A stretch of DNA of 64,000 bases from a virus. Below the pieces are notes generated by a model. That model searched no databases. It was not told the DNA's origin and saw nothing but the letters and a program-made list of their open reading frames with translations. The translations under genes and the position numbers were made by a program. The DNA lies in the IMG/VR virus record IMGVR_UViG_3300025276_000020; one strand, given 5' to 3'. Shown here one piece after another: positions 1 through 64,000 of this stretch. Within the stretch, counting starts at the first letter, position 1. Each line of letters opens with the position of its first letter.

Positions 1-1077
1 GTTTCGGGCCAATGGTATCAAGCAGAGTTTGACGTATTATCAGGTAATGGACCTCATGTTCAACTTGTAAATAGGCATACTAACGGAGTTATTAAACCTT
101 ATACAAATGCAACTAATGTTGATGTTGCATTCTTTGCAGTCGGTAGTAAATGTTATGCGATATGGCAACAAAATACAAATAATACAAATATCGTTTCACT
201 ATATGCAAGTCAAGCAGTGTCACTAGATAACTTTAAAATATATAAAATCAGTGCTGACGATAGAAGCTATTATAACTGTCCTATGCTTAGAGCGGGTACA
301 GTTACAAAGACTGCTGTAGCAACGGGTGCTGACCTTCTGGGTTATAGTGGCTTCTCTGGCAGTAATGGACTACTTCAGCCATATAAGGCAGAATTAGAGC
401 CAGGTACAGGTGACTATAGTGTTATGATCTGGCTCAAAACAGCCGCAACGGCCGCAGAACAAACTATTTTTAGAAGATTTGGTAATCCCACCGTGACTGG
501 GGGACTACTGTTGCGTATCGTTGGTGGCAGTACTTCAGGAATTCAATGGTATACGAGAGATACGTCATCTAATGTTGGCTCAATAACCACTACCACCGCA
601 TTTGATGACAGTCACTGGCATCATGTAGTAGGTACAAGACAAGGTGCCACAATGAGCCTTTATATTGATGGGAAATTATACAGCTCTGTCGCTACCAGTG
701 CAAGTAGCCATAATGCGGGTACTACTGCAAGAATGCACATAGGAGTAGAAGAGACTACTAATTTAGGCGCTTATTCAAACCCCTGTAACGTAACAAATTT
801 AGCACTAGCTAGATACGCATTGGCAGCCCCTACCCCAGAACAAATTAAAAAGATATACAACGATGAGAAGGTCTTATTCCAAGAGAATGGAAAGGCTACT
901 CTTTATGGTACTAGTGATGCAGTCACAGCACTAGCATACGATGATGATACAGAACTGCTTCATGTTGGTACAAGCGCAGGACGATCAGAGTTTCAAGGAC
1001 TTCGTAGAGTTAATAATACAACAGACGCAGTGGGTACAGCAATCAGTGCAAGCAACGGCTTCATAGTAGAGGATTAA
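1..1077 (+). CDS. Tail fibre/virion protein with LamG (concanavalin A-like) domain, 5'-truncated
   Basis: Frame is open from base 1 (VSGQWYQAEF...) into the tracked ORF; WHHVVGTRQGATMSLYIDG is a LamG signature; lies in the fibre cluster. Confidence 0.7.
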   Translation, partial: VSGQWYQAEFDVLSGNGPHVQLVNRHTNGVIKPYTNATNVDVAFFAVGSKCYAIWQQNTNNTNIVSLYASQAVSLDNFKIYKISADDRSYYNCPMLRAGTVTKTAVATGADLLGYSGFSGSNGLLQPYKAELEPGTGDYSVMIWLKTAATAAEQTIFRRFGNPTVTGGLLLRIVGGSTSGIQWYTRDTSSNVGSITTTTAFDDSHWHHVVGTRQGATMSLYIDGKLYSSVATSASSHNAGTTARMHIGVEETTNLGAYSNPCNVTNLALARYALAAPTPEQIKKIYNDEKVLFQENGKATLYGTSDAVTALAYDDDTELLHVGTSAGRSEFQGLRRVNNTTDAVGTAISASNGFIVED

Positions 1078-1079
1078 AA

Positions 1080-2141
1080 ATGGCAGTTAAATTTACAAAA
1101 CCAGAAATCAATGTTCGTGAGAAACTTGCCGAACTCGACAAACCTTCAGGAGTTGCTGGCGAAGCAATGCTTCGTGCTGAGACCCCTCAGGAACAACAAG
1201 CACTTATTGGTGTAGGTCGTAGAAATATGGTTATTAATGGAGCGATGCTTGTTTGGCAAAGGGGAACGGTACAAACAACTTCACAAAACAACTCTTACCA
1301 TTGTGTAGATAGATGGGTACCTTACAGTTCTGGGAGAACTCAGTATCAACAATCCACCGATGTTCCTGATGGATTTGCATACGCTCTTACAACATCGGGT
1401 ACTCCTGTAGGCGAGTATATAATATCACACGGAATAGAACTTCCAGGAGCAGGAATTGCTGGCGAATTATATGTTGGTCAGAAGTTTACAGTAAGCTACT
1501 ATGCAAAATCCACTGCCGCTGGAGATAGACTTATGGATTGGATGGCTTTTAGAGTTGGACAAACTTCGTCTAGTAGCCAAGTCGAGGCTAAGGTTAATGA
1601 CAGCAGTGAGTACCACTCTCTATCAACTGGGTGGAAAAGATACTCAAGAACATACACTATAACAGGTACTCCAGGATCTACTAATATTTGTGTAGCCCTT
1701 GCTATACGAAACCATTGGAATAATCCTATTGCCGCAGGAAACATAAGCATAACTGGTGTCCAGTTAGAAATTGGTTCCACTGCCACACCCTTCGAGCATC
1801 GTTCATACGGCGAAGAACTGGCGTTGTGTCAGCGGTATTATCAAAATATTTACAACGGGCAGTGTTTTGGATCCGCAAATACTACGACTCGTATGAGAAT
1901 TAACGCCCCTCTTTCTCCTGAGATGAGAACTAATCCTACAGTCGCAAGAGTAGCTGGTACAATAGGTTTTCAAGGCATGGGCGTAGGACTTACTTCAACC
2001 TCTACGGCAGTGGCGCAAGCATCTCCTTCAGGACCTAATTTTTTGGGTTTTGATTTGGCGGGGTTTACAAGTCTTACTTCACGATCATATGCGGGGTCTC
2101 AATCTACAACTTTAGTCTTTACAGCCTCAGCGGAGTTATAA
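1080..2141 (+). CDS. Tail fibre/adhesin-like protein with carbohydrate-binding-type domain
   Basis: RRNMVINGAMLVWQRG ... GVQLEIGSTATPFEHRSYGEELALCQRYY motifs typical of marine phage fibre proteins. Confidence 0.65.
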   Translation: MAVKFTKPEINVREKLAELDKPSGVAGEAMLRAETPQEQQALIGVGRRNMVINGAMLVWQRGTVQTTSQNNSYHCVDRWVPYSSGRTQYQQSTDVPDGFAYALTTSGTPVGEYIISHGIELPGAGIAGELYVGQKFTVSYYAKSTAAGDRLMDWMAFRVGQTSSSSQVEAKVNDSSEYHSLSTGWKRYSRTYTITGTPGSTNICVALAIRNHWNNPIAAGNISITGVQLEIGSTATPFEHRSYGEELALCQRYYQNIYNGQCFGSANTTTRMRINAPLSPEMRTNPTVARVAGTIGFQGMGVGLTSTSTAVAQASPSGPNFLGFDLAGFTSLTSRSYAGSQSTTLVFTASAEL

Positions 2142-2142
2142 T

Positions 2143-2832
2143 ATGAACATCGAAACAGTAAAAACATATGAAGCCGGTCTTGTCATTAACGGCACTATTT
2201 CCGTACCAAATGACCCAGCTAACACCGATTACCAAGCAATCCTCGATTGGATTAACGAAGGTAACACACCTGTTGGCCCAGACGTTATTGAACCAGACTA
2301 TGTAGCACTACGCACAGGTCCCGATGGTTATGCTTCTACGGGAGACCAATTAGGAATGATTGCTGATGGCACACAAGCGGCTCATGTTGCAGATGTTAAA
2401 GCACGTTTCCCTAAAACCAATACTGGTAGTACTACCATCGGTGATGTACCTCAAGACATACTAGATGCCGCAGCCGCTAAACTTGCCGCACAACAACTAT
2501 CAGCATACACTACAGCGATAGCAAGACTATCACAATACGTTCTATCAGTTGGTCGTGCAGAAGTAACAGAAAGTCGAGCTACAGGAGAACAAGTCTTGAA
2601 TGAAGAAACAATGCAGATGGATGACGTGATGGCAGATGTCGTTACCGTCACTGCTATTGATGCACTAGATGCAACTGTAGAAGTCACGACTTATGATTTT
2701 GATACTGACACATCATCTACCGAAACAGTTACGAATCCTCTTATTGTAACAGACGTATCAGAGAGAACAGATGCACAAGCTATCGTAGATGCAACACCTT
2801 CGGCTGTTGTGGACGCATACAACGCTTTATAA
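2143..2832 (+). CDS. Putative tail fibre assembly/chaperone protein
   Basis: VPNDPANTDYQAILDWINEGNTP motif; directly follows a fibre gene. Confidence 0.5.
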   Translation: MNIETVKTYEAGLVINGTISVPNDPANTDYQAILDWINEGNTPVGPDVIEPDYVALRTGPDGYASTGDQLGMIADGTQAAHVADVKARFPKTNTGSTTIGDVPQDILDAAAAKLAAQQLSAYTTAIARLSQYVLSVGRAEVTESRATGEQVLNEETMQMDDVMADVVTVTAIDALDATVEVTTYDFDTDTSSTETVTNPLIVTDVSERTDAQAIVDATPSAVVDAYNAL

Positions 2833-2835
2833 ATA
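2828..2835 (+). promoter_or_regulatory. T4-type late promoter TATAAATA
   Basis: Exact gp55 consensus upstream of the long fibre gene. Confidence 0.8.
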
Positions 2836-2870
2836 AGAGTATACATAAACGCTATTGGGGAGAGTGAACC

Positions 2871-5810
2871 TTGGCAACGAATAAAGATTTCATAGTAAAG
2901 AATGGACTATCAGTAGGTGGCGATGTTGCCATAACTGGTAATGTCACATCAGACTTACATCTAAACGACAACGCCAAGATCAAAGTGGGCACTGCCACTG
3001 ATGGCGATCTTCAGATTTACCACAACGTAAACAACTCTTTCATCGAAGATGTTGGTACTGGTAGCTTATATCTCAGAGCAGACGCATCAGTAAGAATTCA
3101 GTCGTATGGCGATAACAACGACATGATCAAGGCTGATAAAGCCGGTGCAGTAACTCTCTATCACAATAACGGATCACGACTCGACACTACAGCATCTGGC
3201 GTAAACGTCACTGGTACTGTAGATATGGATGGCTTTACCAGTGTTGGCAATGGCACTATTACTGGAGATTTGTTAATACAAGAGGGAAGTGGCTTTCCTA
3301 GAATTACCCTTCAAGATTCTGATGGCACAAACACACGTTCCTTTATAAATCATTCTGCTAGTGACCTTACACTTACATCACAGAATGATACAGCTAACGG
3401 TAGAATACTTTTTAGTAGATATGACGGAACTACGACTGCTACGTCAGGATATTTTGATGCAACTGGTAAATTCTTCGCATCTGGTGATTTAGATGTAGCA
3501 GGCAATACGACTGCTGTCAACACGACACTCACTGGATATCTACGTGGTCCTGCTTCATTCACTATCGACCCTGCGACACACGCTGACGATACAGGTACAG
3601 TTATCATCGCCGGCAACTTGCAAGTAGATGGCACACAAACTACAATCAACTCGACCACATTAACAGTAGATGACTTAAACCTAACTCTCGCTAGTGGTGC
3701 AACCGATTCTGCCGCAGCCAATGGTGCTGGAATAACTATTGATGGTGCAACTGCTTCGTTGACATATGCACATAGTGGTACTAAGTTTGTCTTTAATAAA
3801 CCATTAGATGTTACTAGCTCAGGTGTATCAACTGTCAAAATATCAGGTAACTATCCAAGATTATTTTTTGAAGATACAGCAGGTACAGATTTAGATGCCT
3901 ACATAGTAAATAATGCAAATGGTTTATTTTTTGGAAAAACAAATTCACCAACAGGTACAAATGACGTACTTTCCTTAGACCTTTCAACTAAAAACGCTAC
4001 CTTTGCAGGAACGATTAAGGGTACACAAGTTGACATAGGAAATGGTTCTGCTGGTGGCACAAGCGAAATACTATTTTCCGACAACGTCTCCGCTAGAGGT
4101 AAAATAAAATATAACCACGGCTCCAGTCCAGAAGTTATGACACTAGAGACTACTGGTACAGTAGCATTAACAATTGATAATGCTCAAAATGCTACCTTTG
4201 CAGGCAATCTCAGCGCCAACGGAATTACAGCAAATGGTGGGGCTGTTTACAGTGAGACTGCTCAAGGAGCGGCAAAGGGTACTATTCATCTTGACCCAGA
4301 CTCTGTTACAGACCATGCAGGTACAGCACTTACGTTTGGAGCTAGTGATAGCGGAAGCGGTAATACTGCACAAGCAGGAATATACACCCGATCTGATGGT
4401 TCTTACGGTACTAAAATGTACCTCTCAACTACTGATAACTATTCCGCAGGGTCAAAGACAGCAATTAAAATAGATCATCTTGGACGTGTTGATATTTTGC
4501 GTGGCAATCTTACTGTTGCAGGGACGATAGGAGCAAATGACGGCACTGTTTCTTTACCTTCATTGTCTTTTGCAAATGACCCGAACACAGGGATTTATAG
4601 GTCTGCATCAGACAACTTAGGGTTTGCTATAGGCGGTACTGCTAGAGCATTTATGAGTAATAGTCAGTTTAATATTGATACTAAAGTTGTAGCTACAGAA
4701 TTAGACATAAATGGCGTAGGAGATGTGTCAGGAAATCTTACTGCTGGCGCTCTTTATTCATCCGCTGGTTTAAGAAATGCCGGCGGATCAGATTTTGGTT
4801 CACAACAATCTTTTTGGGCTAGCTCAGGTGGTTCTACTCACCAAGCTGGATACACTATAGGATGGAACACTGGCTTAAACAATTCTCGTACTCAAAAGAT
4901 GCGTCTTAACGATAGCGGAAATCTTCTTATTAATCAATCAGTATCAGTAGGGGGAGTCGTTTCTAGTTTGAAAGGGTATTTTTATGAAGATACTTTTGAT
5001 CAAAATGGAAATGCTAAACCTACCTCTGTTGTAGGAGTAGCCGCTGCCACTAATAGTGTTGGCGAAGGTCCAACGATTGATTTTAGCTCAATATGGTCAC
5101 AGAACTCAGTATATCAACAAGATGCTTGGAACGAAGGTTGGACAATTGGTCGTATTGGAGCAGTGTATGATAATCAAGTAAGTAATGGAGGTGCTTTAGT
5201 ATTCTATACTCATAGTGGTACTACTGCTTCTGGCGGTGCAAACAATGCCCAAGTATCTGAAAAAATGAGGATTCGTCCAAACGGCAACGTTGGTATCGGT
5301 GTAGCACTACCATCGGTAAAACTACAAGTTGCTGGAGAAATTCTAGCAACTAATGTCTCATTCACTGATGGGTCAGGAAGTAGTTGCGGGTTTAGTTTAT
5401 CAGGATCTATGGCAGACATGAACTGTGGAACTAAAGGTTTCCAGATTAGAGGTGATGGCGGGTTTGTTAATAAAAACATGAGTAATAATCCGCGGATAGC
5501 GGCATACGACACGAGCGTTTCATTATATGTAAGCGCACAAGCCAAACTGGTACTTTCAGCCACAGATGCGAAATTTACCAATCATGTTTATCCCGTTAGC
5601 GATGACGCAATTGATTTAGGCTCAGCGACATTACGGTGGAGAAATGTCTATACTGGAGATTTACATCTTTCAAACGAAGGTAAAGAAGAAGGCAATGAAG
5701 TAGATGGAACTACAGGCAATTGGACAATACAAGAAGGTGAAGAACATTTATATATCATCAATAATAAGAGTGGTAAAAAGTTCAAATTTAGTTTGGAGGA
5801 AATAGAATAA
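2871..5810 (+). CDS. Long tail fibre protein
   Basis: 979 aa G/T/N/S-rich; MRIRPNGNVGIG repeat; C-terminal DLGSATLRWRNVYTGDLHLSNE...GNWTIQEGEEHLYIINNKSGKKFKF seen in marine myovirus fibres; TTG start after GGGGAG. Confidence 0.75.
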   Translation: MATNKDFIVKNGLSVGGDVAITGNVTSDLHLNDNAKIKVGTATDGDLQIYHNVNNSFIEDVGTGSLYLRADASVRIQSYGDNNDMIKADKAGAVTLYHNNGSRLDTTASGVNVTGTVDMDGFTSVGNGTITGDLLIQEGSGFPRITLQDSDGTNTRSFINHSASDLTLTSQNDTANGRILFSRYDGTTTATSGYFDATGKFFASGDLDVAGNTTAVNTTLTGYLRGPASFTIDPATHADDTGTVIIAGNLQVDGTQTTINSTTLTVDDLNLTLASGATDSAAANGAGITIDGATASLTYAHSGTKFVFNKPLDVTSSGVSTVKISGNYPRLFFEDTAGTDLDAYIVNNANGLFFGKTNSPTGTNDVLSLDLSTKNATFAGTIKGTQVDIGNGSAGGTSEILFSDNVSARGKIKYNHGSSPEVMTLETTGTVALTIDNAQNATFAGNLSANGITANGGAVYSETAQGAAKGTIHLDPDSVTDHAGTALTFGASDSGSGNTAQAGIYTRSDGSYGTKMYLSTTDNYSAGSKTAIKIDHLGRVDILRGNLTVAGTIGANDGTVSLPSLSFANDPNTGIYRSASDNLGFAIGGTARAFMSNSQFNIDTKVVATELDINGVGDVSGNLTAGALYSSAGLRNAGGSDFGSQQSFWASSGGSTHQAGYTIGWNTGLNNSRTQKMRLNDSGNLLINQSVSVGGVVSSLKGYFYEDTFDQNGNAKPTSVVGVAAATNSVGEGPTIDFSSIWSQNSVYQQDAWNEGWTIGRIGAVYDNQVSNGGALVFYTHSGTTASGGANNAQVSEKMRIRPNGNVGIGVALPSVKLQVAGEILATNVSFTDGSGSSCGFSLSGSMADMNCGTKGFQIRGDGGFVNKNMSNNPRIAAYDTSVSLYVSAQAKLVLSATDAKFTNHVYPVSDDAIDLGSATLRWRNVYTGDLHLSNEGKEEGNEVDGTTGNWTIQEGEEHLYIINNKSGKKFKFSLEEIE

Positions 5811-6316
5811 TGGCATATTTACAAGGAGCTTCGGATCGACCAGGTCTGTATCACACTTCTATTACGGTTGGATCTGAGGGTGATGGTTATCATGATACAT
5901 ACTTCCCAATTTGGTGGACTGGATCTACTTCACATTGGGGACATAGAAGAATGATTATATCGAGAACCTACTCATCAACCGGTCCAAGTGTTCATGGTGG
6001 ACATAAAGCAGGCTTACAGTTTGAGTGTGTATGTGGAAATAATGATTGGGGTGGTCATCCTCATGTATTCACTGTTACTCATCATAGTTATACATACAGA
6101 CAAACTATTGCAGCCGCTGGTGGTACTGCTCACAATATGATGAATTATGTTATGTTAAGAGCTGGTGGATACGTATATAATATAACAACAGAAGGGTTTG
6201 AACCTAATTTTTACATAGGAAACCACACCGCAGACCAAGAAACGTACAGTGCGCCCCACCAGACAACTTTAAGTGCAACTACTACTGCCACTTTAGCAAC
6301 TAAGGTATACCAATAA
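5810..6316 (+). CDS. Hypothetical fibre-associated protein
   Basis: Coupled (TAATG overlap) to the fibre gene; His/Gly/Trp-rich. Confidence 0.5.
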   Translation: MAYLQGASDRPGLYHTSITVGSEGDGYHDTYFPIWWTGSTSHWGHRRMIISRTYSSTGPSVHGGHKAGLQFECVCGNNDWGGHPHVFTVTHHSYTYRQTIAAAGGTAHNMMNYVMLRAGGYVYNITTEGFEPNFYIGNHTADQETYSAPHQTTLSATTTATLATKVYQ

Positions 6317-6648
6317 TGACTGACGAAAACGAAAATGCATATACTGGACTTTTTATAGAAGAAGAATTTATATTAGATTCCGGCGAGAAAATCGGATTTG
6401 CACAGTCAGATTGGTTATTAGAGACGGGTGTACTACAAGCAGACATTGATGCCGCAACCATAAGACAGCAATGGAGACCTGCTAGAAAAGAAAGAGATAA
6501 ACTTCTAGCAGAAACCGATTGGATTGTCACCAAACATGCAGAGGCTGGAACATCAGTTCCTACAGCATGGGTTACATATAGAGAGGCATTAAGAGATATA
6601 ACAGATCAAGCTGATGTTGATAATATTACATGGCCTACAAAGCCATAA
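6316..6648 (+). CDS. Phage tail assembly chaperone
   Basis: RKERDKLLAETDW...WVTYREALRDITDQ...ITWPTKP motif. Confidence 0.8.
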   Translation: MTDENENAYTGLFIEEEFILDSGEKIGFAQSDWLLETGVLQADIDAATIRQQWRPARKERDKLLAETDWIVTKHAEAGTSVPTAWVTYREALRDITDQADVDNITWPTKP

Positions 6649-6692
6649 ACGATAAGCATAAATACTATAGAAACTAACTATGGAAGATAGAA

Positions 6693-7436
6693 ATGGCACA
6701 GCCAACAACAAGACCGCAATTTAAAGAGTGGTGCCTAAGAAAGTTAGGCAAGCCAGTCATAGAGATCAACGTTGATGCTGATCAAGCAGAAGATCGCATT
6801 GATGAGGCTCTATCATACTATTGGGACTACCACTTTGATGGTACTGAGAAAACTTATCTGAAGCACGAGATTACTCAAACGGATATCACGAATCAGTACC
6901 TTACTGTGCCTGAGAATATCATTGGCGTTGTTAACTTGTTTCCTGTCGGATCAAGCATTACTGCTGGTAGCGGAATGTTCAACGTTCAATACCAATTCGT
7001 ACTAAACAACATACATGAGATGGTCAGCTACAATCTCACAAACTACTACATGTCAATGCAGAACTTGCAATTCATGGAAGAGTTACTTGTTGGTCAACAA
7101 CCAATTAGATACAACCGACACATCAATAGACTGTTCATCGATATGGATTGGGCTAAAATGTCTGTTGGAAACTTCGTAGTAGCAGAGTGCTATAAAATAG
7201 TAGATCCCGCAACTTATGCAGACGTATACAAAGACCGTTGGCTTCAGAACTATGCGGCAGCTAAAATTAAGTTTCAATGGGGAAGTAATCTAACTAAATT
7301 TAACGGCATGACTTTGCCTGGTAACATTCAGTTCAGCGGAGAACAAATCTTAAATGATGCTCGGGACGAGATAAGACAATTAGAAGATGAAATGATGTCT
7401 TCTTACTCTCTTCCTGTTGTCGATATGATAGGGTAA
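6693..7436 (+). CDS. gp13: Neck protein gp13
   Basis: CLRKLGKPVIEINV, DYHFDG, QWGSNLTKF motifs; late promoter CATAAATA at 6657. Confidence 0.92.
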   Translation: MAQPTTRPQFKEWCLRKLGKPVIEINVDADQAEDRIDEALSYYWDYHFDGTEKTYLKHEITQTDITNQYLTVPENIIGVVNLFPVGSSITAGSGMFNVQYQFVLNNIHEMVSYNLTNYYMSMQNLQFMEELLVGQQPIRYNRHINRLFIDMDWAKMSVGNFVVAECYKIVDPATYADVYKDRWLQNYAAAKIKFQWGSNLTKFNGMTLPGNIQFSGEQILNDARDEIRQLEDEMMSSYSLPVVDMIG

Positions 7437-7440
7437 TAAA

Positions 7441-8439
7441 GTGGCTAAGAACTTCTATTTCGAAAACTATGAAAATTCGATGGAACAGAATCTCATCGAA
7501 GATTTGGTAGTGGAGTCTATAAAGATTTATGGAGTTGATACTTGGTTTATTCCAAGGACCATCAACGCAAAAGATGATATCTTAAACGAAGATGATTTGT
7601 CTTCGTTCGATGATGCTTATCAGGTTGAGATGTACGTTAAGAACGTGGACTCATTTGAAGGAGAAGGAGATTTCTTATCTAAGTTTGGTCTACAAATACG
7701 GGATTCTATCACGTTAACTATAGCTCAAAGAACATATAACCAAGAAGTTGGTTTGAATAGTGCTATAAATCGACCACGTGAAGGCGATCTCATATATCTT
7801 CCTTTAAACAAAAAATACTTTGTTGTACAGCACGTAGAACATGAAGCAATTTTCTATCAAATGGGATCATTGCAGACATACGATCTTAGGTGTGATCTAT
7901 TCGAATACAGTGGCGAGAGATTTACGACGGGACAAACTGAATTAGATAATCACTTCGATGATGAGAACATATTCAGAGATATGACAGGCACCACATTTAC
8001 AGTAGAAGTCAGAAGTGCAGTATTCTCTCTGAAAGATGTAGAAGATAAGGGCGATCTAATTAATACTCCTAAACTAGAAGCACGTGTGGGAGAAGTCATA
8101 ACATTCGACCAAAGTCATACATCAAACGAAACTCATCCTCTTAGAATATATACTGGAACTACTCCATCAAACGGTGCTCCAGTGCCAGCATCGGAAATAT
8201 CCGTAGTTGGTACACCTGGAAACGCAGGCGCTAAGGTTATTTGGACACCTACGTCCACAGGCACATGGTATTATATTAAGACCACTACTGTTGGAATGGG
8301 CGACACTATAACAATATCTGCTTCTAAAGATACAGTATCGTTAATAGACACTTTTGCAGACAACACAGCAATAGAAACGTTGGGTGATAACATAATCGAC
8401 TTTAGTCAGAACAATCCATTTGGTGAGGACAACTTCTAA
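7441..8439 (+). CDS. gp14: Neck/head-closure protein gp14 with inserted domain
   Basis: EQNLIEDLVVESIKIYG, FLSKFGLQIRD, RPREGDLIY, terminal DFSQNNPFG. Confidence 0.9.
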   Translation: MAKNFYFENYENSMEQNLIEDLVVESIKIYGVDTWFIPRTINAKDDILNEDDLSSFDDAYQVEMYVKNVDSFEGEGDFLSKFGLQIRDSITLTIAQRTYNQEVGLNSAINRPREGDLIYLPLNKKYFVVQHVEHEAIFYQMGSLQTYDLRCDLFEYSGERFTTGQTELDNHFDDENIFRDMTGTTFTVEVRSAVFSLKDVEDKGDLINTPKLEARVGEVITFDQSHTSNETHPLRIYTGTTPSNGAPVPASEISVVGTPGNAGAKVIWTPTSTGTWYYIKTTTVGMGDTITISASKDTVSLIDTFADNTAIETLGDNIIDFSQNNPFGEDNF

Positions 8440-11258: not shown

Positions 11259-11278
11259 TATAGCTGAGTCGCTGTTTT

Positions 11279-11286
11279 TATAAATA
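11279..11286 (+). promoter_or_regulatory. T4-type late promoter TATAAATA
   Basis: Consensus upstream of gp18. Confidence 0.85.
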
Positions 11287-11337
11287 TAGTAATAATAGAA
11301 GTTTATAACTTACAAAATAAACAAGGAGAAATAAGAG

Positions 11338-13152: not shown

Positions 13153-13181
13153 TAAATACTAATTCAAAGGAGAAATGAATA

Positions 13182-13736: not shown

Positions 13737-13753
13737 TTGAGCAACTAGATTGG

Positions 13754-54557: not shown

Positions 54558-54561
54558 AAAG

Positions 54562-55121: not shown

Positions 55122-55170
55122 TAAAGATAAATAGTATTAATATAAATTCAAAAATTAGGAGAACATTATA

Positions 55171-56028: not shown

Positions 56029-56030
56029 AC

Positions 56031-57209
56031 GTGACTGATGTAATAGACGAAGCTAAATTTGATCCAGCTGATTTCGATCTAGTTGCAACAGACAAAGATA
56101 AAGCCTCCGCTAAGATGAATATCGTCATGCAGTTGAGAAAGTCTATGGATGTTCGTGGTAATCTAGCTATCAAATTTGGTGACGGTAAGTCTCAGAAGGT
56201 GCCTATGAATATCATGAAGATCGCTTTAGACAAGTTTGCTAAGGTACGTAAGCCAGATTCTAAAATGAAGATGCAAGATGCTATGGGCAAATCATACAAA
56301 GATATGATTACGACACTCAAAACTTTCAAAGAGGAAACTCAGATGGACGAAGGCTTTTCACCTAAAGAAATAAAAATGGCAATTGGTGTTGCTACAGACA
56401 AACGCTACAAAGGTGGCGATATGACTGGCGCAACTCAAGCTATTGACAAGATCAAAAAGGGTCTGTCTAATCATCCTCAAGTGAAAGCGGTACTCAAAAG
56501 AGTAAACGAAGACCTTGACGAATCCTATGGATCAATGAATGCCTCTGTAGATAAAGTTAAGATTCAAAAGCAGATAGATCAAACTGAGAAGCACATGAAG
56601 ACGTTCTTCGGTAATACCTCTTCAGTTAAGATGAAGAAGCTTGCTATGCAGAAGAAGCTTGATAAACTTAAAGCTCAACTCAAGGAAGAAGTATTACTAG
56701 ACGAAGCTTTTGATCTTGTAGAAGCTATGGGTAACTGGACAATTAGTGTAGTTAAGCCTGTTAATAAGCTAAAGAAGGGTCAGAACGTAACTGTCAAGGC
56801 ACGTAGTGCATTCGAAGCAATCAACAAAGCTATGAAGCATTGGAAAGATCCTGCTTTAAAGGCTGTACCAGCTACTCACTTCAAGATTGTTAAGGAAGAA
56901 GTTGAATTAGAGCTTGACGAGGGCAAAGATTTAACGTATACTGTAGAAGCTTCAGCCTATAAAGTACTTCATAACACATTTTCTGCCGCAGTGCAAGAAG
57001 CTATTGCAGTTGCTAAGAAGCAGGGATATGACGTTGATGAGGACGATTGGTCTAATAAAGTCGCTACTGGTCCTAAAAAACCTAGTAAAGATAAGACAAA
57101 CAGATATTCTATCAAACTAGAGAAGGGCGGCAAGCCAACAAGAAAGTTCTTACAAATCCAAGTATATAACATGGGTTCGAAGTACGAGTTGAACTGCTAC
57201 GTTCAATAA
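56031..57209 (+). CDS. Modular basic protein, probable head-internal polyprotein
   Basis: Basic modules separated by IDEA, MDEG, LDES, LDEA, LVEA, LDEG. Confidence 0.6.
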   Translation: MTDVIDEAKFDPADFDLVATDKDKASAKMNIVMQLRKSMDVRGNLAIKFGDGKSQKVPMNIMKIALDKFAKVRKPDSKMKMQDAMGKSYKDMITTLKTFKEETQMDEGFSPKEIKMAIGVATDKRYKGGDMTGATQAIDKIKKGLSNHPQVKAVLKRVNEDLDESYGSMNASVDKVKIQKQIDQTEKHMKTFFGNTSSVKMKKLAMQKKLDKLKAQLKEEVLLDEAFDLVEAMGNWTISVVKPVNKLKKGQNVTVKARSAFEAINKAMKHWKDPALKAVPATHFKIVKEEVELELDEGKDLTYTVEASAYKVLHNTFSAAVQEAIAVAKKQGYDVDEDDWSNKVATGPKKPSKDKTNRYSIKLEKGGKPTRKFLQIQVYNMGSKYELNCYVQ

Positions 57210-57214
57210 ATAGT

Positions 57215-57382
57215 ATGAAAGAGTGGATAAAAAGATTTTGTGCGGATGTAGTCGAGAATTGGCCAAACCACGCAACAATGTATGAAGCACAGATGTTTAT
57301 AGATAGCGTATACCACGCTACTGGGCATCAGTCAGAAGAAATTCAAAATGAAGAAACGAACCATTTAAACAAGGAGAAATGA
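57215..57382 (+). CDS. Possible 55-aa protein (not in ORF track)
   Basis: Open frame MKEWIKRFCAD... fills the gap; no SD. Confidence 0.35.
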   Translation: MKEWIKRFCADVVENWPNHATMYEAQMFIDSVYHATGHQSEEIQNEETNHLNKEK

Positions 57383-57383
57383 A

Positions 57384-58535
57384 ATGGCATTATGGGGAAC
57401 AGTAGACACTTTGGCAGCAACGCCAAAAGTTAATACAAAAACAACAACATTTGACGCAACCAACGCCGCAGTGGTCGTTCTAGCATCAAATACAATTAAA
57501 CTACCAGGTCATAGCTATGTCACCGGCGACGGTGTACAGTACAATGATGCAGGTGGTACTGTTATCACTGGTTTGACCGATGCGACTACCGTATTTGTTA
57601 ATCGAGTTGACGCAGACACTATCAAGCTATATGGCACTAAAGCACAGGCTATCACTGGTCACGCATCAACAGGTCTTAAAGGACTTACTGGTGTTGGAGT
57701 TGGTGCAGGTCATAACTTTGTTAGAGTACCTGATGACACATACTTCATCGATACTACTGAAGCAAGCTTATCGACTAACCGTGTTAAAGGATTTAAAACT
57801 CCAGGTTGGAACGAGTACTCTACTAAAGCAGTACCAGCAACAGTATTATCTTTTAATGCTACTGCTGTGGGAGTCGATCTGGCTAACAATATCGTCAGAG
57901 TTGATAATCAACCTGTATTGATTAACGGTAGCGCAGTAACTTACTCTAGAGGCGGTCAAACAATCGTAACGGGTCTAACAGACGGTGCTGTAGTTTACGT
58001 ACATAACGTAGGCGCTGGCATGATTAAGTTATACACTACAGCCGCTCAAGCAATTGCTGGTGGAGCAACTGGTCTTAAAGCACTTACAGTTGTAGGCGTA
58101 GGAACTCAAACTTTTACAGCCGCAGACAGTGTAACACGAAACGTTATTGAAAATATCGTACCAATGAAAGTTGCCGCAGGAACTGCTGGTGATGTTGGTG
58201 TTGACGGAACTGATGATGTCTTGTTGTTCGATAGAGAAGTAGCAATCACTACTCAGCCTACGCAAGCTTCAGCAACAGTTAACTTAGCTGGCGATGCTAA
58301 CATCGTTCTAGCTGTAGTTGCTACAGCACTACCTGGAAATACAGGTCTAGCATATCAGTGGCAAGAAGATGGATCTAACATCTCTGCATCTGGTATCTAC
58401 ACCAACGTAACAACTGCAACAATGACTATTACTGGAACCACTAATAACTTAGCTGGTAAGAAGTATCGTTGTGTTGTAAGTGCTACAGCGGCGAAAGACT
58501 TGACTTCAAGCGAAGTAGTGGCTACTCAGTCTTAA
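57384..58535 (+). CDS. Virion surface protein with two internal repeats and a C-terminal Ig-like domain
   Basis: MALWG start; duplicated G.TV/I.TGLTD...V.V...IKLY.T.AQAI.G unit; ITTQP...YQWQ...YRCVVS. Confidence 0.7.
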   Translation: MALWGTVDTLAATPKVNTKTTTFDATNAAVVVLASNTIKLPGHSYVTGDGVQYNDAGGTVITGLTDATTVFVNRVDADTIKLYGTKAQAITGHASTGLKGLTGVGVGAGHNFVRVPDDTYFIDTTEASLSTNRVKGFKTPGWNEYSTKAVPATVLSFNATAVGVDLANNIVRVDNQPVLINGSAVTYSRGGQTIVTGLTDGAVVYVHNVGAGMIKLYTTAAQAIAGGATGLKALTVVGVGTQTFTAADSVTRNVIENIVPMKVAAGTAGDVGVDGTDDVLLFDREVAITTQPTQASATVNLAGDANIVLAVVATALPGNTGLAYQWQEDGSNISASGIYTNVTTATMTITGTTNNLAGKKYRCVVSATAAKDLTSSEVVATQS

Positions 58536-58561
58536 ACTGATTATAAATGAAGTTATAAATA

Positions 58562-58593
58562 ATACTGAAGAGCAGAACATCGCTCTTCAGTAT
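58562..58593 (+). other. 12-bp perfect hairpin immediately after a late promoter
   Basis: ATACTGAAGAGC-agaacatc-GCTCTTCAGTAT; TATAAATA at 58554. Confidence 0.7.
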
Positions 58594-58617
58594 AATTTAA
58601 CTAAAGGTGAATAAACT

Positions 58618-58992
58618 ATGAAGCTAGACGAAGACAGCTTTTTGCTGTATGCCGCAAAGTACTATGATATTAGAATGGCAGCATCGGCAGATGAATTTTA
58701 TGACGATCTTAAACGCTTTCAGCATTTAAAGAGATTGTTTAAGAGATATGAAGATGATGATGATTTAAAGGTCAGATTGATTCTTAATCATTTGACAGTT
58801 TTGTATAACTGTTTTGGTTCAGCCGCTACGACTATGCTGTTCTTTAAGCTTAGAGACTATCACAAGTATTTAAAACCTTTTGTGGTATTTTTAGCTTTTA
58901 TGCCTGAACTAGTAGAGTATAGCGAAGAGAAAATTATAAGTTCAGAAATACCTCTGGACGCAAGAATTATTAAAGAGTTGAGAGAGCTATGA
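58618..58992 (+). CDS. Conserved T4-like hypothetical protein
   Basis: FLLYAAKYY...EFYDDLKRF...RLILNHL. Confidence 0.75.
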   Translation: MKLDEDSFLLYAAKYYDIRMAASADEFYDDLKRFQHLKRLFKRYEDDDDLKVRLILNHLTVLYNCFGSAATTMLFFKLRDYHKYLKPFVVFLAFMPELVEYSEEKIISSEIPLDARIIKELREL

Positions 58993-59552
58993 TTGTTGAT
59001 CTATTTTTAGTCTACCAGTTTATACGAAGGTTGGCAACACCCTTCAATGAATGGTCGGCATTCAAATTAGGAATCATTGACGAAACTGGCAAACAACTTA
59101 TAAAAAGAAAAAACTTTACAACACGTGAGCAAAAAGATTCATTTCAAATTTTTGATATTATGATCGCAAAGCTCAAGCGTTTGTTAGAGAAAGTACCTGG
59201 CGGTAAGAGTCGAATTGGATCTTATGCCGCTGCCCTATATTTGATTAAAGAAAACAATCAAATTGAATCGGACTGCAACACGCTCACGGAAGAGCAACTT
59301 ACAGAAAAACTAGAGCAATATATGAATCTAGTTGAATCTACTATTGATATCGATAAAATCTTCGAAAGTGCCTTTGACGAAGACGCTCCTGCTAATAGTG
59401 CAGGTAGCGGTAACATTGCAGGTATTGGTGTAGGATCAGATGGTGAGCCAGGCGTTAGTAAGTCACAGCAAAAGAAGAAGAAGAAACAACCGCTGAAACG
59501 CTTTAGAGATGCTACGATAGAGATCGATAGCACTCCTAATCAAACAAAATAG
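58989..59552 (+). CDS. Conserved T4-like hypothetical protein
   Basis: YQFIRRLATPFNEWSAFKLGIIDETG...YAAALYLIKE. Confidence 0.75.
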   Translation: MIVDLFLVYQFIRRLATPFNEWSAFKLGIIDETGKQLIKRKNFTTREQKDSFQIFDIMIAKLKRLLEKVPGGKSRIGSYAAALYLIKENNQIESDCNTLTEEQLTEKLEQYMNLVESTIDIDKIFESAFDEDAPANSAGSGNIAGIGVGSDGEPGVSKSQQKKKKKQPLKRFRDATIEIDSTPNQTK

Positions 59553-59560
59553 GTAAATCA

Positions 59561-60016
59561 GTGGAAACAGATTTGAATAGCGTCCGTACGGATGTTGAAA
59601 TACTCAAAAATGATGTGTCTAATATACAGGGTTTATTAGGCAGATTAGACATGGCTATAGATAAGATAGCGGATGCTAGTAATGGCATATCCCGAATACT
59701 CGCTGTACACGATACACAACTTGATAAAGCTTCTACGGATAATATAGAGTCCAATAGACTTAGGGAGACGGCAAACGAATTGTTACATAAGCGTATATCT
59801 GAGAAAGAAGCTGAACACAGGCTTCAAGCCGAAAAGAATCATGAAAGCCTCATGACATTCCTCAAAGAACACGATGAAAGAAGTGAGCAATACATCACAA
59901 AAATGAATGACCGTATTACTCAACTAGAGCGATGGAAATGGGTCATGCTAGGCGGTGCTACTGTTGTAGGATTCCTATTAGCTGAATTAGAAGGATTCTT
60001 ACATATCCTTCGATAA
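59561..60016 (+). CDS. Coiled-coil protein with C-terminal transmembrane segment
   Basis: ILAVHD...LERWKWVMLGGATVVGFLL. Confidence 0.65.
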   Translation: METDLNSVRTDVEILKNDVSNIQGLLGRLDMAIDKIADASNGISRILAVHDTQLDKASTDNIESNRLRETANELLHKRISEKEAEHRLQAEKNHESLMTFLKEHDERSEQYITKMNDRITQLERWKWVMLGGATVVGFLLAELEGFLHILR

Positions 60017-60022
60017 TATGTC

Positions 60023-60050
60023 TTGACACCACGTACCAATAGTGTATAAT
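60023..60050 (+). promoter_or_regulatory. Sigma70 promoter for primase
   Basis: TTGACA-16-TATAAT. Confidence 0.7.
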
Positions 60051-60074
60051 AGACTTATTGGTTGAATTGTATAC

Positions 60075-61136
60075 GTGGAGTTTATATTGAATATTACTGA
60101 TCTAAAATATGCTGGTATCCTCTCTGTAAGATTAGAGAGATTTACTGTCAAGGCACATAATCCTTACAGGGCTAACTTCAGATGTCCTATCTGTGGTGAC
60201 TCTCAAAAGAACAAAACTAAGGCACGTGGATGGATTCTTGAGAAAGAAAACACCGCAATCATCTATTGCCATAATTGTAACGCATCACACAATATGCGTA
60301 GTTTTCTTAGATTCATCGACAACAATCTATTCAATGAATATGTGATCGACTCTGCTTTAGAGAAAGGTCAGAGACGTGAAATCTTTCAGAATAGACATCA
60401 AGAACCAATAAAGCCGTTAGACAAGCTAAGAATGAAAGCACCAAACTTTCGTAAGAAAGGCTCACCTCTACTAAAAATTAAAAAGATTTCTCAGCTAAAT
60501 TATGATCATAAAGCTAAGATTTATTTGCAAAAACGACTGATCCCGGCATCGGTACAATATAAATTATACTATGCGCCAAAGTTTAATGAGTGGGTAAACT
60601 CTATCGTACCTGGGAAGCTCCCTACAATAGAGAGAGATCGTCCTAGACTGATCATGCCATTCATAGACAAGGGCGGCAATTTGTTCGGATTTAATGCTAG
60701 AGCTTTTGGTGATGACGAACTAAGATATATAACTATAATGCTAGACGATACTATGCCTAAGATGTTTAATCTAGACAAGGTTGACTTTAACAAGAAGTAC
60801 TATGTTACAGAAGGTCCTATCGATAGTCTCTTCTTGAGTAACGCTGTCGCTATGGCAGGTGCTGATGGTAATGCTAGAGGTTTAGAGAACACAGAGAATG
60901 CTGTTTTCGTGTTTGATAACGAACCAAGAAATAAAGAGATAGTCCAGCGTATGGAAAGATGTCTAGACAAAGGCTTCAAAGTCTGCATCTTCCCTAAGAA
61001 GGAGATAGTCAAAGATATCAATGATATGGTTCTTAATGGTACCAATCCTATAGATATAGAGATGATTATAGATATGAACACCTATCAGGGACTCTCTGGA
61101 AAATTAGAGATGGCTGAATGGAAAAAAGTAACTTAA
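60075..61136 (+). CDS. gp61: DNA primase gp61
   Basis: NFRCPICGDS, CHNC, TEGPIDSLF, FDNEPRN, KDINDM; start may be TTG 60087. Confidence 0.96.
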   Translation: MEFILNITDLKYAGILSVRLERFTVKAHNPYRANFRCPICGDSQKNKTKARGWILEKENTAIIYCHNCNASHNMRSFLRFIDNNLFNEYVIDSALEKGQRREIFQNRHQEPIKPLDKLRMKAPNFRKKGSPLLKIKKISQLNYDHKAKIYLQKRLIPASVQYKLYYAPKFNEWVNSIVPGKLPTIERDRPRLIMPFIDKGGNLFGFNARAFGDDELRYITIMLDDTMPKMFNLDKVDFNKKYYVTEGPIDSLFLSNAVAMAGADGNARGLENTENAVFVFDNEPRNKEIVQRMERCLDKGFKVCIFPKKEIVKDINDMVLNGTNPIDIEMIIDMNTYQGLSGKLEMAEWKKVT

Positions 61137-61196
61137 GATAGCATTGCGTATTGACACCCTCTCAATACTATGTTATTATAACTAAATATTGGAGAG

Positions 61197-61622
61197 ATGT
61201 TTATGAGTAAAGAAGACCTAGCCAAATCACTTGGCAAGAAGTTTAAATACAGGTATGATAGTGAGCAGTACAGTAAAAGAGATGCATGGTACATCATGCG
61301 AGAAGAGACTGCTAAGGGTAAACTAGAGGGTGACTGCGAAGACTTCGCTTTAACTCTTTTATGGCACATATCTGATCATAGTTATGTGAAGTTTTGGTGG
61401 AACCTCATTTCACGCAAAGCTAAAATCTGTTATTGTTACGTAGAAACTCCAGATCGTGGACACGCTGTATTACGATACGATGGAGAATTCGCTGATAATA
61501 TTCAGAAGAAATTCGTCACTAAAGAAAAGATGGAATCAAAGGGCTATGTGTTTTCAAAATGGATGTTCATTCCAAGTACTGTAGCCATCAAGATGCTTAT
61601 AGGTAAGTTCTACAAGATATAA
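61197..61622 (+). CDS. Transglutaminase-like cysteine peptidase
   Basis: GDCEDFAL ... GHAVL ... DN triad pattern; promoter TTGACA-17-TATTAT at 61151. Confidence 0.65.
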   Translation: MFMSKEDLAKSLGKKFKYRYDSEQYSKRDAWYIMREETAKGKLEGDCEDFALTLLWHISDHSYVKFWWNLISRKAKICYCYVETPDRGHAVLRYDGEFADNIQKKFVTKEKMESKGYVFSKWMFIPSTVAIKMLIGKFYKI

Positions 61623-61643
61623 AACTTAACATGGAGAAGTGAG

Positions 61644-62135
61644 TTGATTAGAGGTATATTTGCGTGTGATCGTGAGAATGGCATTGGAAAAAATGGCACT
61701 CTACCATGGCCGCACAACAGTGAAGATTTAAAATGGTTTAAGAGAAGTACCAAAAATTGTGTAGTAGTGATGGGAAGGAGAACTTGGAATGATCCACTTA
61801 TGCCAGCTCCTCTTCCTGATCGCTACAACATAGTATTAACAACTAAAGACCTTAGTACTGGACCTAAAATGTTGTCTGGACCTAATATGATCTTTCAAGA
61901 AGTTGATAGTCTGACTCATACGATGACGCTATTTCAACAAGACGTTTGGGTAATAGGTGGTTCGACTACATTTAAGGCACTAATGCATGTGTGCGAAGAG
62001 TTATGGATAAGCCGTATTAACGGAGTTTACGACTGTGATACACATCTCAGCGATATGTGCGACTATGAATTGTTTCATAAAGAGTATGATGTCGATAAAA
62101 ATTTACGAATCGAAAAGTATAGAAGGTCAATATAG
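61644..62135 (+). CDS. frd: Dihydrofolate reductase
   Basis: GIGKNGTLPW, DLKWFK, VMGRRTW, PLPDRYN, VIGG. Confidence 0.94.
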   Translation: MIRGIFACDRENGIGKNGTLPWPHNSEDLKWFKRSTKNCVVVMGRRTWNDPLMPAPLPDRYNIVLTTKDLSTGPKMLSGPNMIFQEVDSLTHTMTLFQQDVWVIGGSTTFKALMHVCEELWISRINGVYDCDTHLSDMCDYELFHKEYDVDKNLRIEKYRRSI

Positions 62136-63022
62136 TGAAGCAATACTTAGAAGCTATGCAAGACATTATGGACAACGGTGATGAGCGTATGGACCGAACG
62201 GGAACTGGTACTAAAAGTATTTTTGGTTATCAGATGAGGTATGACCTGAGACGAGGGTTTCCAGCTGTTACAACTAAGAAGTTGGCTTGGAAGTCTGTAG
62301 TAGGTGAACTACTGTGGTTCTTAGAAGGCAGTACCGATGAGCGTAGACTAGCAGAGATTACGTTCGGAGAAGATAGGAAAGAGTTATATGACCGTAGTAC
62401 TATATGGACAGCTAATGCTGATAATCAAGGTGTAGCTTTAGGCTATCACAATGACTACATGCACAAAGGGCTTGGTCCAGTTTACGGCTTTCAATGGAGA
62501 AATTTCAACGGCTCAATGTACAATAGTGCGCCGCATCTTCAAGGGACAGACCAGATCACGTGGCTCATCAATGAGATAAAAACAAATCCGGACAGTCGTA
62601 GATTAATTCTAAGTGCATGGAATCCTAATCAGATCGACCAGATGGCTTTACCTCCTTGTCACACTATGTCGCAGTTCTACGTCAACAATGGAAAACTGAG
62701 TTGTCAAATGTATCAGAGAAGCGCAGATATGTTTTTAGGTGTACCCTTTAACATCGCAAGCTATGCTTTATTGACACACATTATAGCGAAAATAACTGGT
62801 CTACAAGTCGGTGATTTCGTCCATACGGTTGGCGATGTACATATATACAATACACACTATGAAGCAGTGAGCGAACAACTAAAGCGCATTCCGCAAAACC
62901 TACCTTCACTACGTATGCCAAAGTTTACTTCACTAGATGAAGTACTAGATTTGGACGTCTCTGACTTCCAGTTAGAGGGATATAAACCAATGAGTGCTAT
63001 CAAAGCAATGATGGCAGTCTAA
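62135..63022 (+). CDS. td: Thymidylate synthase (ThyA type)
   Basis: DRTGTGT, LGPVYG.QWR, LPPCH, YQRSADMFLGVPFNIASY. Confidence 0.97.
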   Translation: MKQYLEAMQDIMDNGDERMDRTGTGTKSIFGYQMRYDLRRGFPAVTTKKLAWKSVVGELLWFLEGSTDERRLAEITFGEDRKELYDRSTIWTANADNQGVALGYHNDYMHKGLGPVYGFQWRNFNGSMYNSAPHLQGTDQITWLINEIKTNPDSRRLILSAWNPNQIDQMALPPCHTMSQFYVNNGKLSCQMYQRSADMFLGVPFNIASYALLTHIIAKITGLQVGDFVHTVGDVHIYNTHYEAVSEQLKRIPQNLPSLRMPKFTSLDEVLDLDVSDFQLEGYKPMSAIKAMMAV

Positions 63023-63043
63023 TAACAAATAAATGGAAATGAG

Positions 63044-64000
63044 ATGACAATAAAGATAGATAAAACAAAAGATAGTCTACTAGAGTCCTACGCTGTAGGA
63101 ATGCTAAAAGACTTTTACTTAACAGAGTATGAGAAATCGCCACAAGAGGCTTTCAAACGTGCATCAACTGCATGGTCGAAATACCGAGAAGATATGAATG
63201 AAGACATGGCACAACGATTGTATAACTATGTCTCTAACAAGTGGTTCATGTTCGCATCACCAGTATTGTCTAATGCTCCTAATGGTGCTAAACAAGGTAA
63301 AGGAATGCCCATCTCATGTTTCTTGACTTATGTTCCAGACACTCTTGAGGGTCTTATTGGTCACACTTCTGAGTTACGTTGGCTATCTGTTTACGGTGGT
63401 GGAGTTGGTGGTCACTGGTCTGATGTGCGTACTGTATCTGATGTAGCACCTGGTCCTATGCCTTTTCTCCACACAGTAGATGCTGACATGATTGCATATC
63501 GTCAAGGTAAAACTCGTAAGGGCTCTTATGCGGCATACATGGACATCTCTCACCCAGACATCATCGAATTTCTTAACATGCGTATACCTACAGGTGACGT
63601 ACAACGTAAAGCTCTGAACTTGCACAACGCTGTAAACATTACTGATGAGTTTATGAATGCCGCGGCAGAAGGGAAATCTTTTGACCTCCGTGATCCAAAA
63701 GATGGAAGTGTTAAAGATAGTGTAGATGCTCGTAAACTGTGGGAGCGTATTATAGAGACACGCTTTAGAACTGGTGAGCCTTACATGAATTTCATCGACA
63801 CTGCTAATCGTGATCTGCCTCAACCTCTGAAAGATTTGGGTCTCAAGATCAATGGATCTAATCTCTGTAATGAAATTCATTTACCAACTAGCGAAGATCG
63901 CACCGCTGTGTGTTGCTTATCATCCTTGAATCTAGAATACTATGATGAGTGGAAAGATACGAGTATTGTTGCTGATCTTATCTGTATGTTAGATAACGTT
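63044..64000 (+). CDS. nrdA: Ribonucleotide reductase class I alpha subunit, 3'-truncated (not in ORF track)
   Basis: MTIKIDK... open to the window end; ASPVLSN, PISCF, GGGVG, TGEPY, GSNLCNEI, VCCLSSLNL. Confidence 0.92.
   Translation, partial: MTIKIDKTKDSLLESYAVGMLKDFYLTEYEKSPQEAFKRASTAWSKYREDMNEDMAQRLYNYVSNKWFMFASPVLSNAPNGAKQGKGMPISCFLTYVPDTLEGLIGHTSELRWLSVYGGGVGGHWSDVRTVSDVAPGPMPFLHTVDADMIAYRQGKTRKGSYAAYMDISHPDIIEFLNMRIPTGDVQRKALNLHNAVNITDEFMNAAAEGKSFDLRDPKDGSVKDSVDARKLWERIIETRFRTGEPYMNFIDTANRDLPQPLKDLGLKINGSNLCNEIHLPTSEDRTAVCCLSSLNLEYYDEWKDTSIVADLICMLDNV

Follow-up and report, generated by a model that had tools for sequence, protein, structure and literature searches.

Restriction-type palindromes of an uncultured marine T4-like phage survive only beside a repeated terminal base, pointing to a possible GG/CC-step DNA shield

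Why would a phage tolerate a restriction-type palindrome beside one base and lose every copy of it beside another? The question is posed by the IMG/VR virus record IMGVR_UViG_3300025276_000020, analysed here as one stretch of 64,000 bases (the window), which has a G+C content of 39.7% and all its genes on the + strand. A preliminary description, made from the letters alone, had claimed that the pentamer GCWGC occurs in it only as GGCWGC or GCWGCC, and that the missing word is the palindrome HGCWGCD (in the usual degenerate base symbols). We find that this is one case of a wider rule, which takes in about fifteen further restriction-type palindromes: G/C-terminal sites survive only where the next base outside is identical to the terminal one, so that the edge of the site falls within a GG/CC step. 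The window comes from an uncultured marine T4-like phage. Its gene set combines a T4-type virion module with a T4-type replication module; the closest named phage is C48C1 (Kyanoviridae), with a DNA polymerase identity of only 53% (~47% for cyanomyoviruses), megablast of window positions 24-34 kb against GenBank phages gave no match, and marine metagenomes of eight studies contain near-identical DNA.

An exact scan confirmed the first observation. GCWGC occurs 28 times in the 64,000 bases, with a 5′ G only at 9 sites, a 3′ C only at 12 and both at 7 (Table 1), the positions first listed being right to within one base, and HGCWGCD has no copy at all. With 1000 synonymous-codon shuffles within genes as the null, HGCWGCD was expected 76.9 ± 5.8 times, the lowest count in any shuffle being 58, and the flanked forms GGCWGC/GCWGCC were expected 27.8 ± 4.3 times and found 28 times; for GCWGC altogether the count is 28 against 105. 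Flanked GCWGC is under no detectable selection and neutral, and unflanked GCWGC is wholly purged. Therefore, the unflanked word would be lethal or strongly deleterious. The codon usage that had first drawn attention to the site was likewise as described: Ala codons are mostly GCT (614) and GCA (570), together 79%, against 178 GCC and 133 GCG, and in all 84 of the 116 Ala-Ala pairs that have H..D flanks the first codon is GCC (52) or GCG (32) and never GCW, whereas with a G or C flank it is GCW in 28 of 32. All 28 surviving sites are Ala-Ala pairs in frame 0; flanked copies in frames 1 or 2 number 0 against 6.3 expected, a small departure. In unflanked context GCSGC is 3.3-fold over-represented (89 against 26.6), being the recoding product of the GCWGC purge, and GGCSGC/GCSGCC is rare, in part because such words would create GGCC.

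The same dependence on one flanking base holds for 14 site types. Unflanked copies number 0 against ~217 expected from synonymous-codon shuffles, and flank-extended copies 67 against ~100; in this set, flanked GCWGC stands at 28 against 28.6. By site, the unflanked counts (observed/expected) are GCWGC 0/76, CGWCG 0/43, CGCG 0/28, CTGCAG 0/14.6, CAGCTG 0/13.6, GCTAGC 0/7.3, CGATCG 0/5.6, GTCGAC 0/5.3, GACGTC 0/5.3, CGTACG 0/4.5, GAGCTC 0/3.8, CTCGAG 0/3.7, GCATGC 0/3.0 and GTGCAC 0/2.4. CTGCAG (4 copies), CAGCTG (11, against 9.5 expected in flanked form) and GCTAGC (2) survive only with a flank that repeats the terminal base, and the same is true of GCATGC, CTCGAG, CGATCG, CGTACG, GACGTC, GTCGAC and GTGCAC. 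For CGWCG, 10 copies are left of ~61 expected (43 of these expected unflanked), all of them CCGWCG or CGWCGG. For CGCG, 3 are left of 46, and here both flanks are needed, a single one not being tolerated. A flank of the other G/C base gives no rescue (C before GCWGC, G before CGWCG), and positions beyond +1 have no effect. A/T-terminal palindromes are purged with no rescuing context (AGATCT 0/25, AGCGCT, TGCGCA). Hexamers ending in an internal CC/GG (CCATGG, GGATCC, GGTACC, GGCGCC, CCGCGG and CCTAGG) are tolerated, at 19 against 28 expected, and hexamers with two G/C bases, e.g. GAATTC and GATATC, are not avoided. CACGTG is the only hexamer palindrome with four G/C bases and G/C ends that is not purged, and it is over-represented (18 against ~7.6 expected). 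CC/GG dinucleotides in the coding regions of the window stand at 0.88 of expectation overall.

The rule is conserved in metagenomic relatives. A set of 73 IMG/VR loci around the polymerase gene (684 kb, 69-100% polymerase identity) obeys the rule, unflanked copies being confined to six loci whose lineages do not avoid the sites in question. The avoided subset differs by lineage, as in the loci L062/L124, where the counts are 7/0 for GCWGC, 0/11 for CGWCG and 4/21 for CGCG. Moreover, 80 loci linked to a gene for a TAGT-family glycosyltransferase, discussed below, form a mosaic in which each lineage avoids its own subset and each avoided site survives only when flanked. Such lineage-specific subsets fit many enzymes and one rescue. 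On the 88-kb contig G011, all 120 GATC are GGATC or GATCC, with 0 unflanked against 205 expected, and CASTG, CGCG, GAWTC, GTATAC and CACGTG behave as GATC does. Palindromes below a codon-preserving null, in sets that vary with lineage or host to form a mosaic over the relatives and other phages, are what is found, as in restriction-site avoidance.

Cultured phages, tested as complete genomes, allowed the rule to be followed beyond this clade. Pelagibacter phage HTVC008M (NC_020484) has 83 GATC, all flanked (GGATC or GATCC), and 0 unflanked against 208 expected; the corresponding values are 28 flanked and 0/141 unflanked for GAWTC, 15 and 0/91 for GASTC, and 14 and 0/35 for GTATAC. Its alphaproteobacterial host has GANTC as its CcrM site, and this word, too, is kept only with a flank that repeats the terminal G or C. 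Many other palindromes are absent from HTVC008M, as is the non-palindromic TCAAGA (0 against ~108); CCGA, AGCC and CACGTA are further non-palindromic words that it avoids. In Aeh1, CAGCTG (10 flanked, 0/24 unflanked), GAGCTC (7 flanked) and GTGCAC (6 flanked) have no unflanked copy. In KVP40 only G-start sites follow the rule, e.g. GTCGAC with 11 flanked and 0/30 unflanked. Flank rescue there is limited to sites that start with G and end with C, with a 5′ G in 48 of 50 survivors, and hexamers that start with C are simply purged (5 against 386 expected), an asymmetry that could show which member of the GG/CC step is the important one. In Kuja, PTm1 and Paraglaciecola GD virus 1 (GD1), a few sites follow the rule. 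RB43, RB49, SPO1, ICP1, T7, T5, S-PM2 and Syn9 avoid many sites too, but purge flanked copies as well, and Vibrio phage henriette 12B8 shows no flank rescue. The comparison of the two V. cholerae phages is telling: for CCWGG, Kuja retains 30 flanked and 2 unflanked copies and ICP1 retains 1 and 0. Since they share a host species and differ in outcome, the rule is a property of the phage rather than of the enzymes.

These data bear on the first cause put forward in the preliminary description, a host enzyme recognising HGCWGCD. The same flank rule at at least 13 other unrelated site types of the window, and at sites of other phages, calls for a cause shared by all sites rather than a property of one enzyme; its spread over sites, phages and hosts excludes a single HGCWGCD enzyme and makes an intrinsic property of restriction enzymes very unlikely. 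In its broader form, the idea would have host enzymes in general require a flank unlike the base at the end of the site (as in HGCWGCD or DCGWCGH), and the phage DNA itself would play no part. A symmetric 7-bp word is formally possible as a recognition sequence, and degenerate recognition positions are known, e.g. GDGCHC. However, more than 12 enzymes of unrelated specificity, whose hosts range from Pelagibacter to Vibrio and Aeromonas, would all have to share this odd property; the characterised prototypes MboI, PvuII, SalI and TseI cut regardless of such flanks; and phages of other hosts, as well as ICP1 on the host species of Kuja, purge flanked copies too. We therefore regard flank-requiring enzymes as highly improbable.

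Conventional methyltransferases of phage or host could instead overlap the flanked forms (GGNCC, CCSGG, CCCGGG and GGATC-type specificities) and protect them. GD1 and PTm1 give this idea its footing: they rescue only GGCC (as GGSCC) and CCGG (as CCCGGG or CCSGG), words that match known methylase specificities, and methylases of D12 or N4/N6 type are present in GD1, Kuja and PTm1. Some of the cases in these three phages could be classical overlapping methylases. In GD1, CCGG is found only as CCCGGG (16/16) and GGCC as GGGCC/GGCCC in 100 of 103 cases, with GGGCCC absent, a pattern that fits either a run-extension rule or classical CCCGGG/GGNCC methylases. Against the idea, such enzymes cannot together cover the 14 site types of the window, nor GATC, GAWTC, CASTG, CGCG, GTATAC and CACGTG in G011 and HTVC008M, and the three main DNA methyltransferase families were undetected in HTVC008M, KVP40 and Aeh1. 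As a general cause we hold it to have very little chance of being right.

Within the window, the only candidate tailoring system seen is a four-gene sugar cluster at 26.2-29.9 kb, adjoining gp46, of which the rule had been suggested to be the footprint (Table 1). Its TAGT-family glycosyltransferase, which has an N-terminal extension of ~130-200 residues, is by its family assignment a candidate DNA-tailoring enzyme. In the corresponding explanation, the TAGT, GT-B, PMM-type and nucleotidyltransferase genes would themselves serve to glycosylate a hydroxymethyl-pyrimidine in GGC/GCC, the sugar blocking the enzymes. PF20691 is a family of DNA hydroxymethyl-base glycosyltransferases; the TAGT gene is kept in 5/5 large clade contigs, beside gp46/47 like the T4 alpha-gt, and is found also in the rule-positive Aeh1, Kuja, PTm1, GD1, G011 and G012. 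Henriette 12B8, which shows no rule, has its TAGT homologue (20978-22158, unannotated in the record) split into two open reading frames (ORFs), probably as a pseudogene. However, no TAGT could be detected, even by jackhmmer, in HTVC008M, although its proteins are 63-65% identical to those of G011 and G012, which do carry the gene, and it shares their avoided sites and their rule; KVP40 likewise lacks a homologue. TAGT as a necessary determinant, our first idea, was rejected for this reason; the sugar cluster cannot be the universal cause and is a candidate local tailoring system. The PMM-type phosphomutase is not common to the other rule-obeying phages, and it occurs together with the nucleotidyltransferase in contig G006, which lacks TAGT and does not avoid the sites.

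The sugar would also need a hydroxymethylated base. No dCMP hydroxymethylase (gp42), as used in hmC glucosylation of the T-even type, was found in the window, where the sole ThyA-like gene is td, beside frd. Its product has PPCH and PFNIASY motifs, the Asn of which indicates dUMP specificity, and judged by these residues it is a true dUMP thymidylate synthase, so no source of hydroxymethyl-pyrimidine is visible; a second ThyA-like gene is absent from the related contigs searched and from GD1. With no C5-methylase found either, and no TET match in a weakly controlled search, neither hydroxymethyl-C nor hydroxymethyl-U has an evident origin, and we consider glycosylation by this cluster unlikely as the explanation, although 'TAGT or DruA-like' would cover every rule-positive genome except KVP40. 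Global replacement of C is argued against by the strong avoidance of C-containing sites.

DruA-like (PF14236) genes are found only in HTVC008M (two copies), G011 and G012; hmmsearch detected none among the window ORFs, nor were any detected in the clade contigs, KVP40, Aeh1, GD1, Kuja or PTm1. What lies immediately behind gp46 varies: the window and G011 (26442-29053) have GT-B and TAGT there, and HTVC008M (84548-87258) has three genes, one unassigned (335 aa), one JmjC/cupin and one DruA-like. The second DruA-like gene lies directly after the DNA polymerase in HTVC008M and G011. TGT/DpdA (PF01702) matched none of 20 genomes or contigs, among them HTVC008M, KVP40 and Aeh1 (control positive 14/14), and no window ORF; a 7-deazaguanine was rejected on this ground. 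The preQ0 genes folE, queD, queE and queC did not surface in a Pfam scan of the window ORFs, which was not a dedicated search. C5-cytosine methyltransferase (PF00145) is missing in the window, in the clade contigs and in every complete genome tested, and conventional methylation was rejected because no methylase was detected in HTVC008M, KVP40 and Aeh1. Tet_JBP (PF12851) gave no match, though control genomes also gave none, phage 5mYOX being divergent. Mom (PF25680) has no homologue in the window or its relatives and matches only the rule-negative ICP1 and, weakly, PTm1. Taken together, TAGT, DruA-like genes, DpdA and the known methylases are excluded as a universal writer.

With no shared writer gene, the pattern might arise with no post-replicative mark at all. 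Either the replisome would insert a non-canonical C or G analogue preferentially after an identical base, or the phage would avoid the targets of its own host-DNA-degrading nucleases, these having an intrinsic flank preference. T4-type replication and nucleotide-metabolism modules are present in all clearly rule-positive genomes, a polymerase would naturally be sensitive to the preceding base, and the window has dUTPase/DCD-like and MazZ-like nucleotide enzymes; furthermore, the genome of the HTVC008M host is streamlined, and dozens of restriction systems there would seem surprising. On the other hand, RB43 and RB49 share the replisome type but show no rescue, a modified-dNTP pathway was not found, self-avoidance leaves the flank effect unexplained, and close relatives have purged different sets of sites, just as their hosts' defences would differ. 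Both versions together have, in our view, a small chance of being correct.

The explanation that we favour, with about even confidence, is a phage-borne shield that depends on GG/CC steps and is most probably covalent. Many Type II-like restriction targets have been purged from the phage lineage, and since the purged set differs between close relatives, many different enzymes of the host population would be responsible. At GG/CC dinucleotide steps the phage DNA would have some special feature, most likely a covalent modification of the C:G pair that depends on the nearest neighbour, and a site would become invisible or uncuttable when its outermost G:C pair and the pair outside it form such a step, one flank being enough for most sites and CGCG needing two. 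Shielded sites would be neutral and stay at their expected frequency, only unshielded ones being removed. That either flank suffices, that only the identical G/C base works and that A/T ends are never rescued is as expected if one strand of a GG/CC step is marked and this step straddles the edge of the recognition sequence. The rule, its generality across sites, its conservation and its belonging to the phage are established by the counts above; the covalent nature of the shield and the identity of the writing enzyme are what we infer. The preliminary description had proposed, as its second cause, that the phage marks GGC: the logic of this holds and generalises to any terminal G/C pair forming an outer GG/CC step, but the precedents named for it were not found: relatives and complete rule-obeying genomes gave no TGT/DpdA, no C5-methyltransferase and, in a weak test, no Tet_JBP match, and the lack of H-GCWGC-T is at odds with GpC-wide or GC[C/T] marking (PMC8256090).

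Several points weigh against a GG/CC-step shield. No writer gene was identified: TGT/DpdA and methyltransferases of the C5, N4/N6 and D12 types were undetected in HTVC008M, KVP40 and Aeh1 and in the window, and no BLAST-detectable gene is common to all rule-obeying genomes and absent from the others. In this phage the writer search covered the 64-kb window, at least 140 kb of the genome lying outside it. GGCC (12 against 73) and, more mildly, CCGG (29 against 57) contain CC on both strands yet are depleted in the window with no flank rescue, and in Kuja, GD1 and PTm1 the rescue of CCWGG, GGCC and CCGG takes a third identical base, so a simple model in which every C next to a C is blocked fails. 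If every C in a run were marked, GGCC, CCGG and CCWGG should be protected, which is seen neither here nor in those three phages, and if only one base were marked, whether the 5′ C or the 3′ C of CC, that base would fall just outside the site in half of the site types. Models of this kind (5′ C only, 3′ C only, all C of CC) were rejected, each conflicting with at least one of GGCC, CCGG and CCWGG. Lastly, where hydroxymethylcytosine genes are missing, the DNA of T4 relatives has been regarded as probably unmodified and open to cutting by some Type II enzymes (PMC2993671).

Elsewhere in the window, the replication-side genes comprise gp55, gp47/46, gp45, gp44/62, RegA, gp43, UvsX, gp41, primase, ligase, frd-td and nrdA. 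One gene has a MazZ-like domain; neither PurZ nor DatZ was seen. Shine-Dalgarno-like words are rarer inside the window genes than in codon shuffles (GGAGG/CCTCC 13 against 52, AGGA 351 against 522). The small ParB/Srx-like protein has a homologue in GD1 that sits 4 kb from the GD1 TAGT gene. ParB-like activators of phage base (thymine) dioxygenases have recently been described (PMC13229309); a thymine dioxygenase/ParB system was rejected as the cause of the rule, as its NTC/NTG motifs (PMC13229309) do not match a G/C flank.

Table 1. Positions of the surviving sites and of selected genes in the window.
Feature	Position	Strand	Details
Surviving GCWGC sites (28)	823..59233	no strand	each with 5′ G or 3′ C; starts 823, 2470, 3714, 5043, 6110, 7257, 11530, 11638, 11788, 12220, 13314, 17126, 18080, 18666, 24629, 33092, 41863, 43365, 49002, 49283, 49551, 49998, 51164, 54135, 55231, 57414, 58678, 59229
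Surviving CGWCG sites (10)	7925..57531	no strand	starts 7925, 9592, 19020, 22836, 37392, 38411, 45125, 45240, 48349, 57527
Surviving CGCG sites (3)	5491..63664	no strand	starts 5491, 33782, 63661; all CCGCGG
PMM-type HAD phosphomutase (sugar activation)	26200..26910	+	PF03332, E = 3e-28
Cytidylyltransferase-like nucleotidyltransferase, heptose-1-phosphate adenylyltransferase type	26865..27326	+	PF01467, phrog_7878
GT-B (GT1/GT4-like) glycosyltransferase	27323..28408	+	PF00534; homologue found only in G011
TAGT-family GT-A glycosyltransferase	28405..29919	+	PF20691, E = 1e-38, 134 bits, residues 208-411; phrog_842
MazZ-like dATP/dGTP diphosphohydrolase domain	32459-32899	+	PF18909; between exonuclease gene and gp45
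dUTPase / dCTP-deaminase-like enzyme	35959..36534	+	PF00692, PF22769; homologues in Aeh1, KVP40
Small ParB/Srx-like protein	53236..53667	+	phrog_2859, ParB-like families; homologues in GD1, Kuja, PTm1
frd (DHFR) + td pair	61644..63022	+	PF00186; PF00303 at 351 bits

We found no earlier description of the flank rule in the literature searched. New here are its generalisation to GG/CC steps, its occurrence in cultured phages presumed unmodified, and the exclusion of the universal writers considered. At somewhat below even confidence, we propose a new GG/CC-step DNA shield, probably a covalent base or backbone modification, that non-homologous writers (TAGT-type, DruA-like GNATs and at least one other) would make, that would be widespread in marine and aquatic T4-like phages, including the supposedly unmodified HTVC008M, KVP40 and Aeh1, and that would be readable from sequence as a flank-conditional purge. 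How T4 relatives without hydroxymethylcytosine escape host restriction has been flagged as an open question (PMC2993671), and the signature would be part of the answer, sites being purged only where a GG/CC-linked feature does not already cover them. So strict a rule (0 against ~217 here, 0/208 for GATC in HTVC008M) predicts which sites of virion DNA resist which commercial enzymes, and three rule-obeying phages, HTVC008M, KVP40 and Aeh1, are in culture, making the question quickly testable. Should a modification come to light, it would add a new epigenetic mark at the level of the dinucleotide, for which any phage genome could be screened from sequence alone.

Among the closest known systems is the classical palindrome avoidance of lytic dsDNA phages, of which RB43, RB49, SPO1 and ICP1 show the usual form. 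There, too, Type II-like palindromes are strongly depleted in lineage-specific sets, but independently of the flank, whereas here one flanking base decides all or none and flanked copies stand at expectation. The Mom system of phage Mu, a context-limited hypermodification of adenine that shields overlapping restriction sites, offers a parallel in logic, as a partial, context-dependent mark would protect only the sites that it overlaps and do so against many enzymes at once; Mom acts on adenine, however, and the window and its relatives have no homologue. Coliphage CAjan carries preQ0 at GA and GGC (DpdA, 7-deazaguanine). A guanine mark in GG(C) context would reproduce the rescue of G-start sites, but GA gives no protection here (purged words include CGACG, GACGTC and GAGCTC), the rescue of CGWCGG does not depend on what comes after GG, and the 20 genomes or contigs have no TGT/DpdA. 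The chlorella virus enzymes M.CviPI (GpC) and M.CviPII (CCD) show that modification motifs of 2-3 bases exist in viruses, CCD even being of the CC type, though the window has no methyltransferase gene of a known family. Lastly, phage pathways of C5-methyltransferase, TET (5mYOX) and glycosyltransferase place sugar hypermodifications post-replicatively at GpC[C/T] (PMC8256090; bioRxiv 10.1101/2023.12.21.572611). They share with the window a TAGT-like GT-A enzyme, and GCC is part of their motif; they differ in that no C5-methylase was found here and the weakly controlled TET search gave no match, that GCWGC followed by T is not rescued, and that C-start sites are rescued by CC and any base, which is impossible for a GC-anchored motif. 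As context-limited shielding marks, Mom, the preQ0 of CAjan and the GC[C/T] systems (PMC8256090) are nonetheless precedents that support a GG/CC-step shield.

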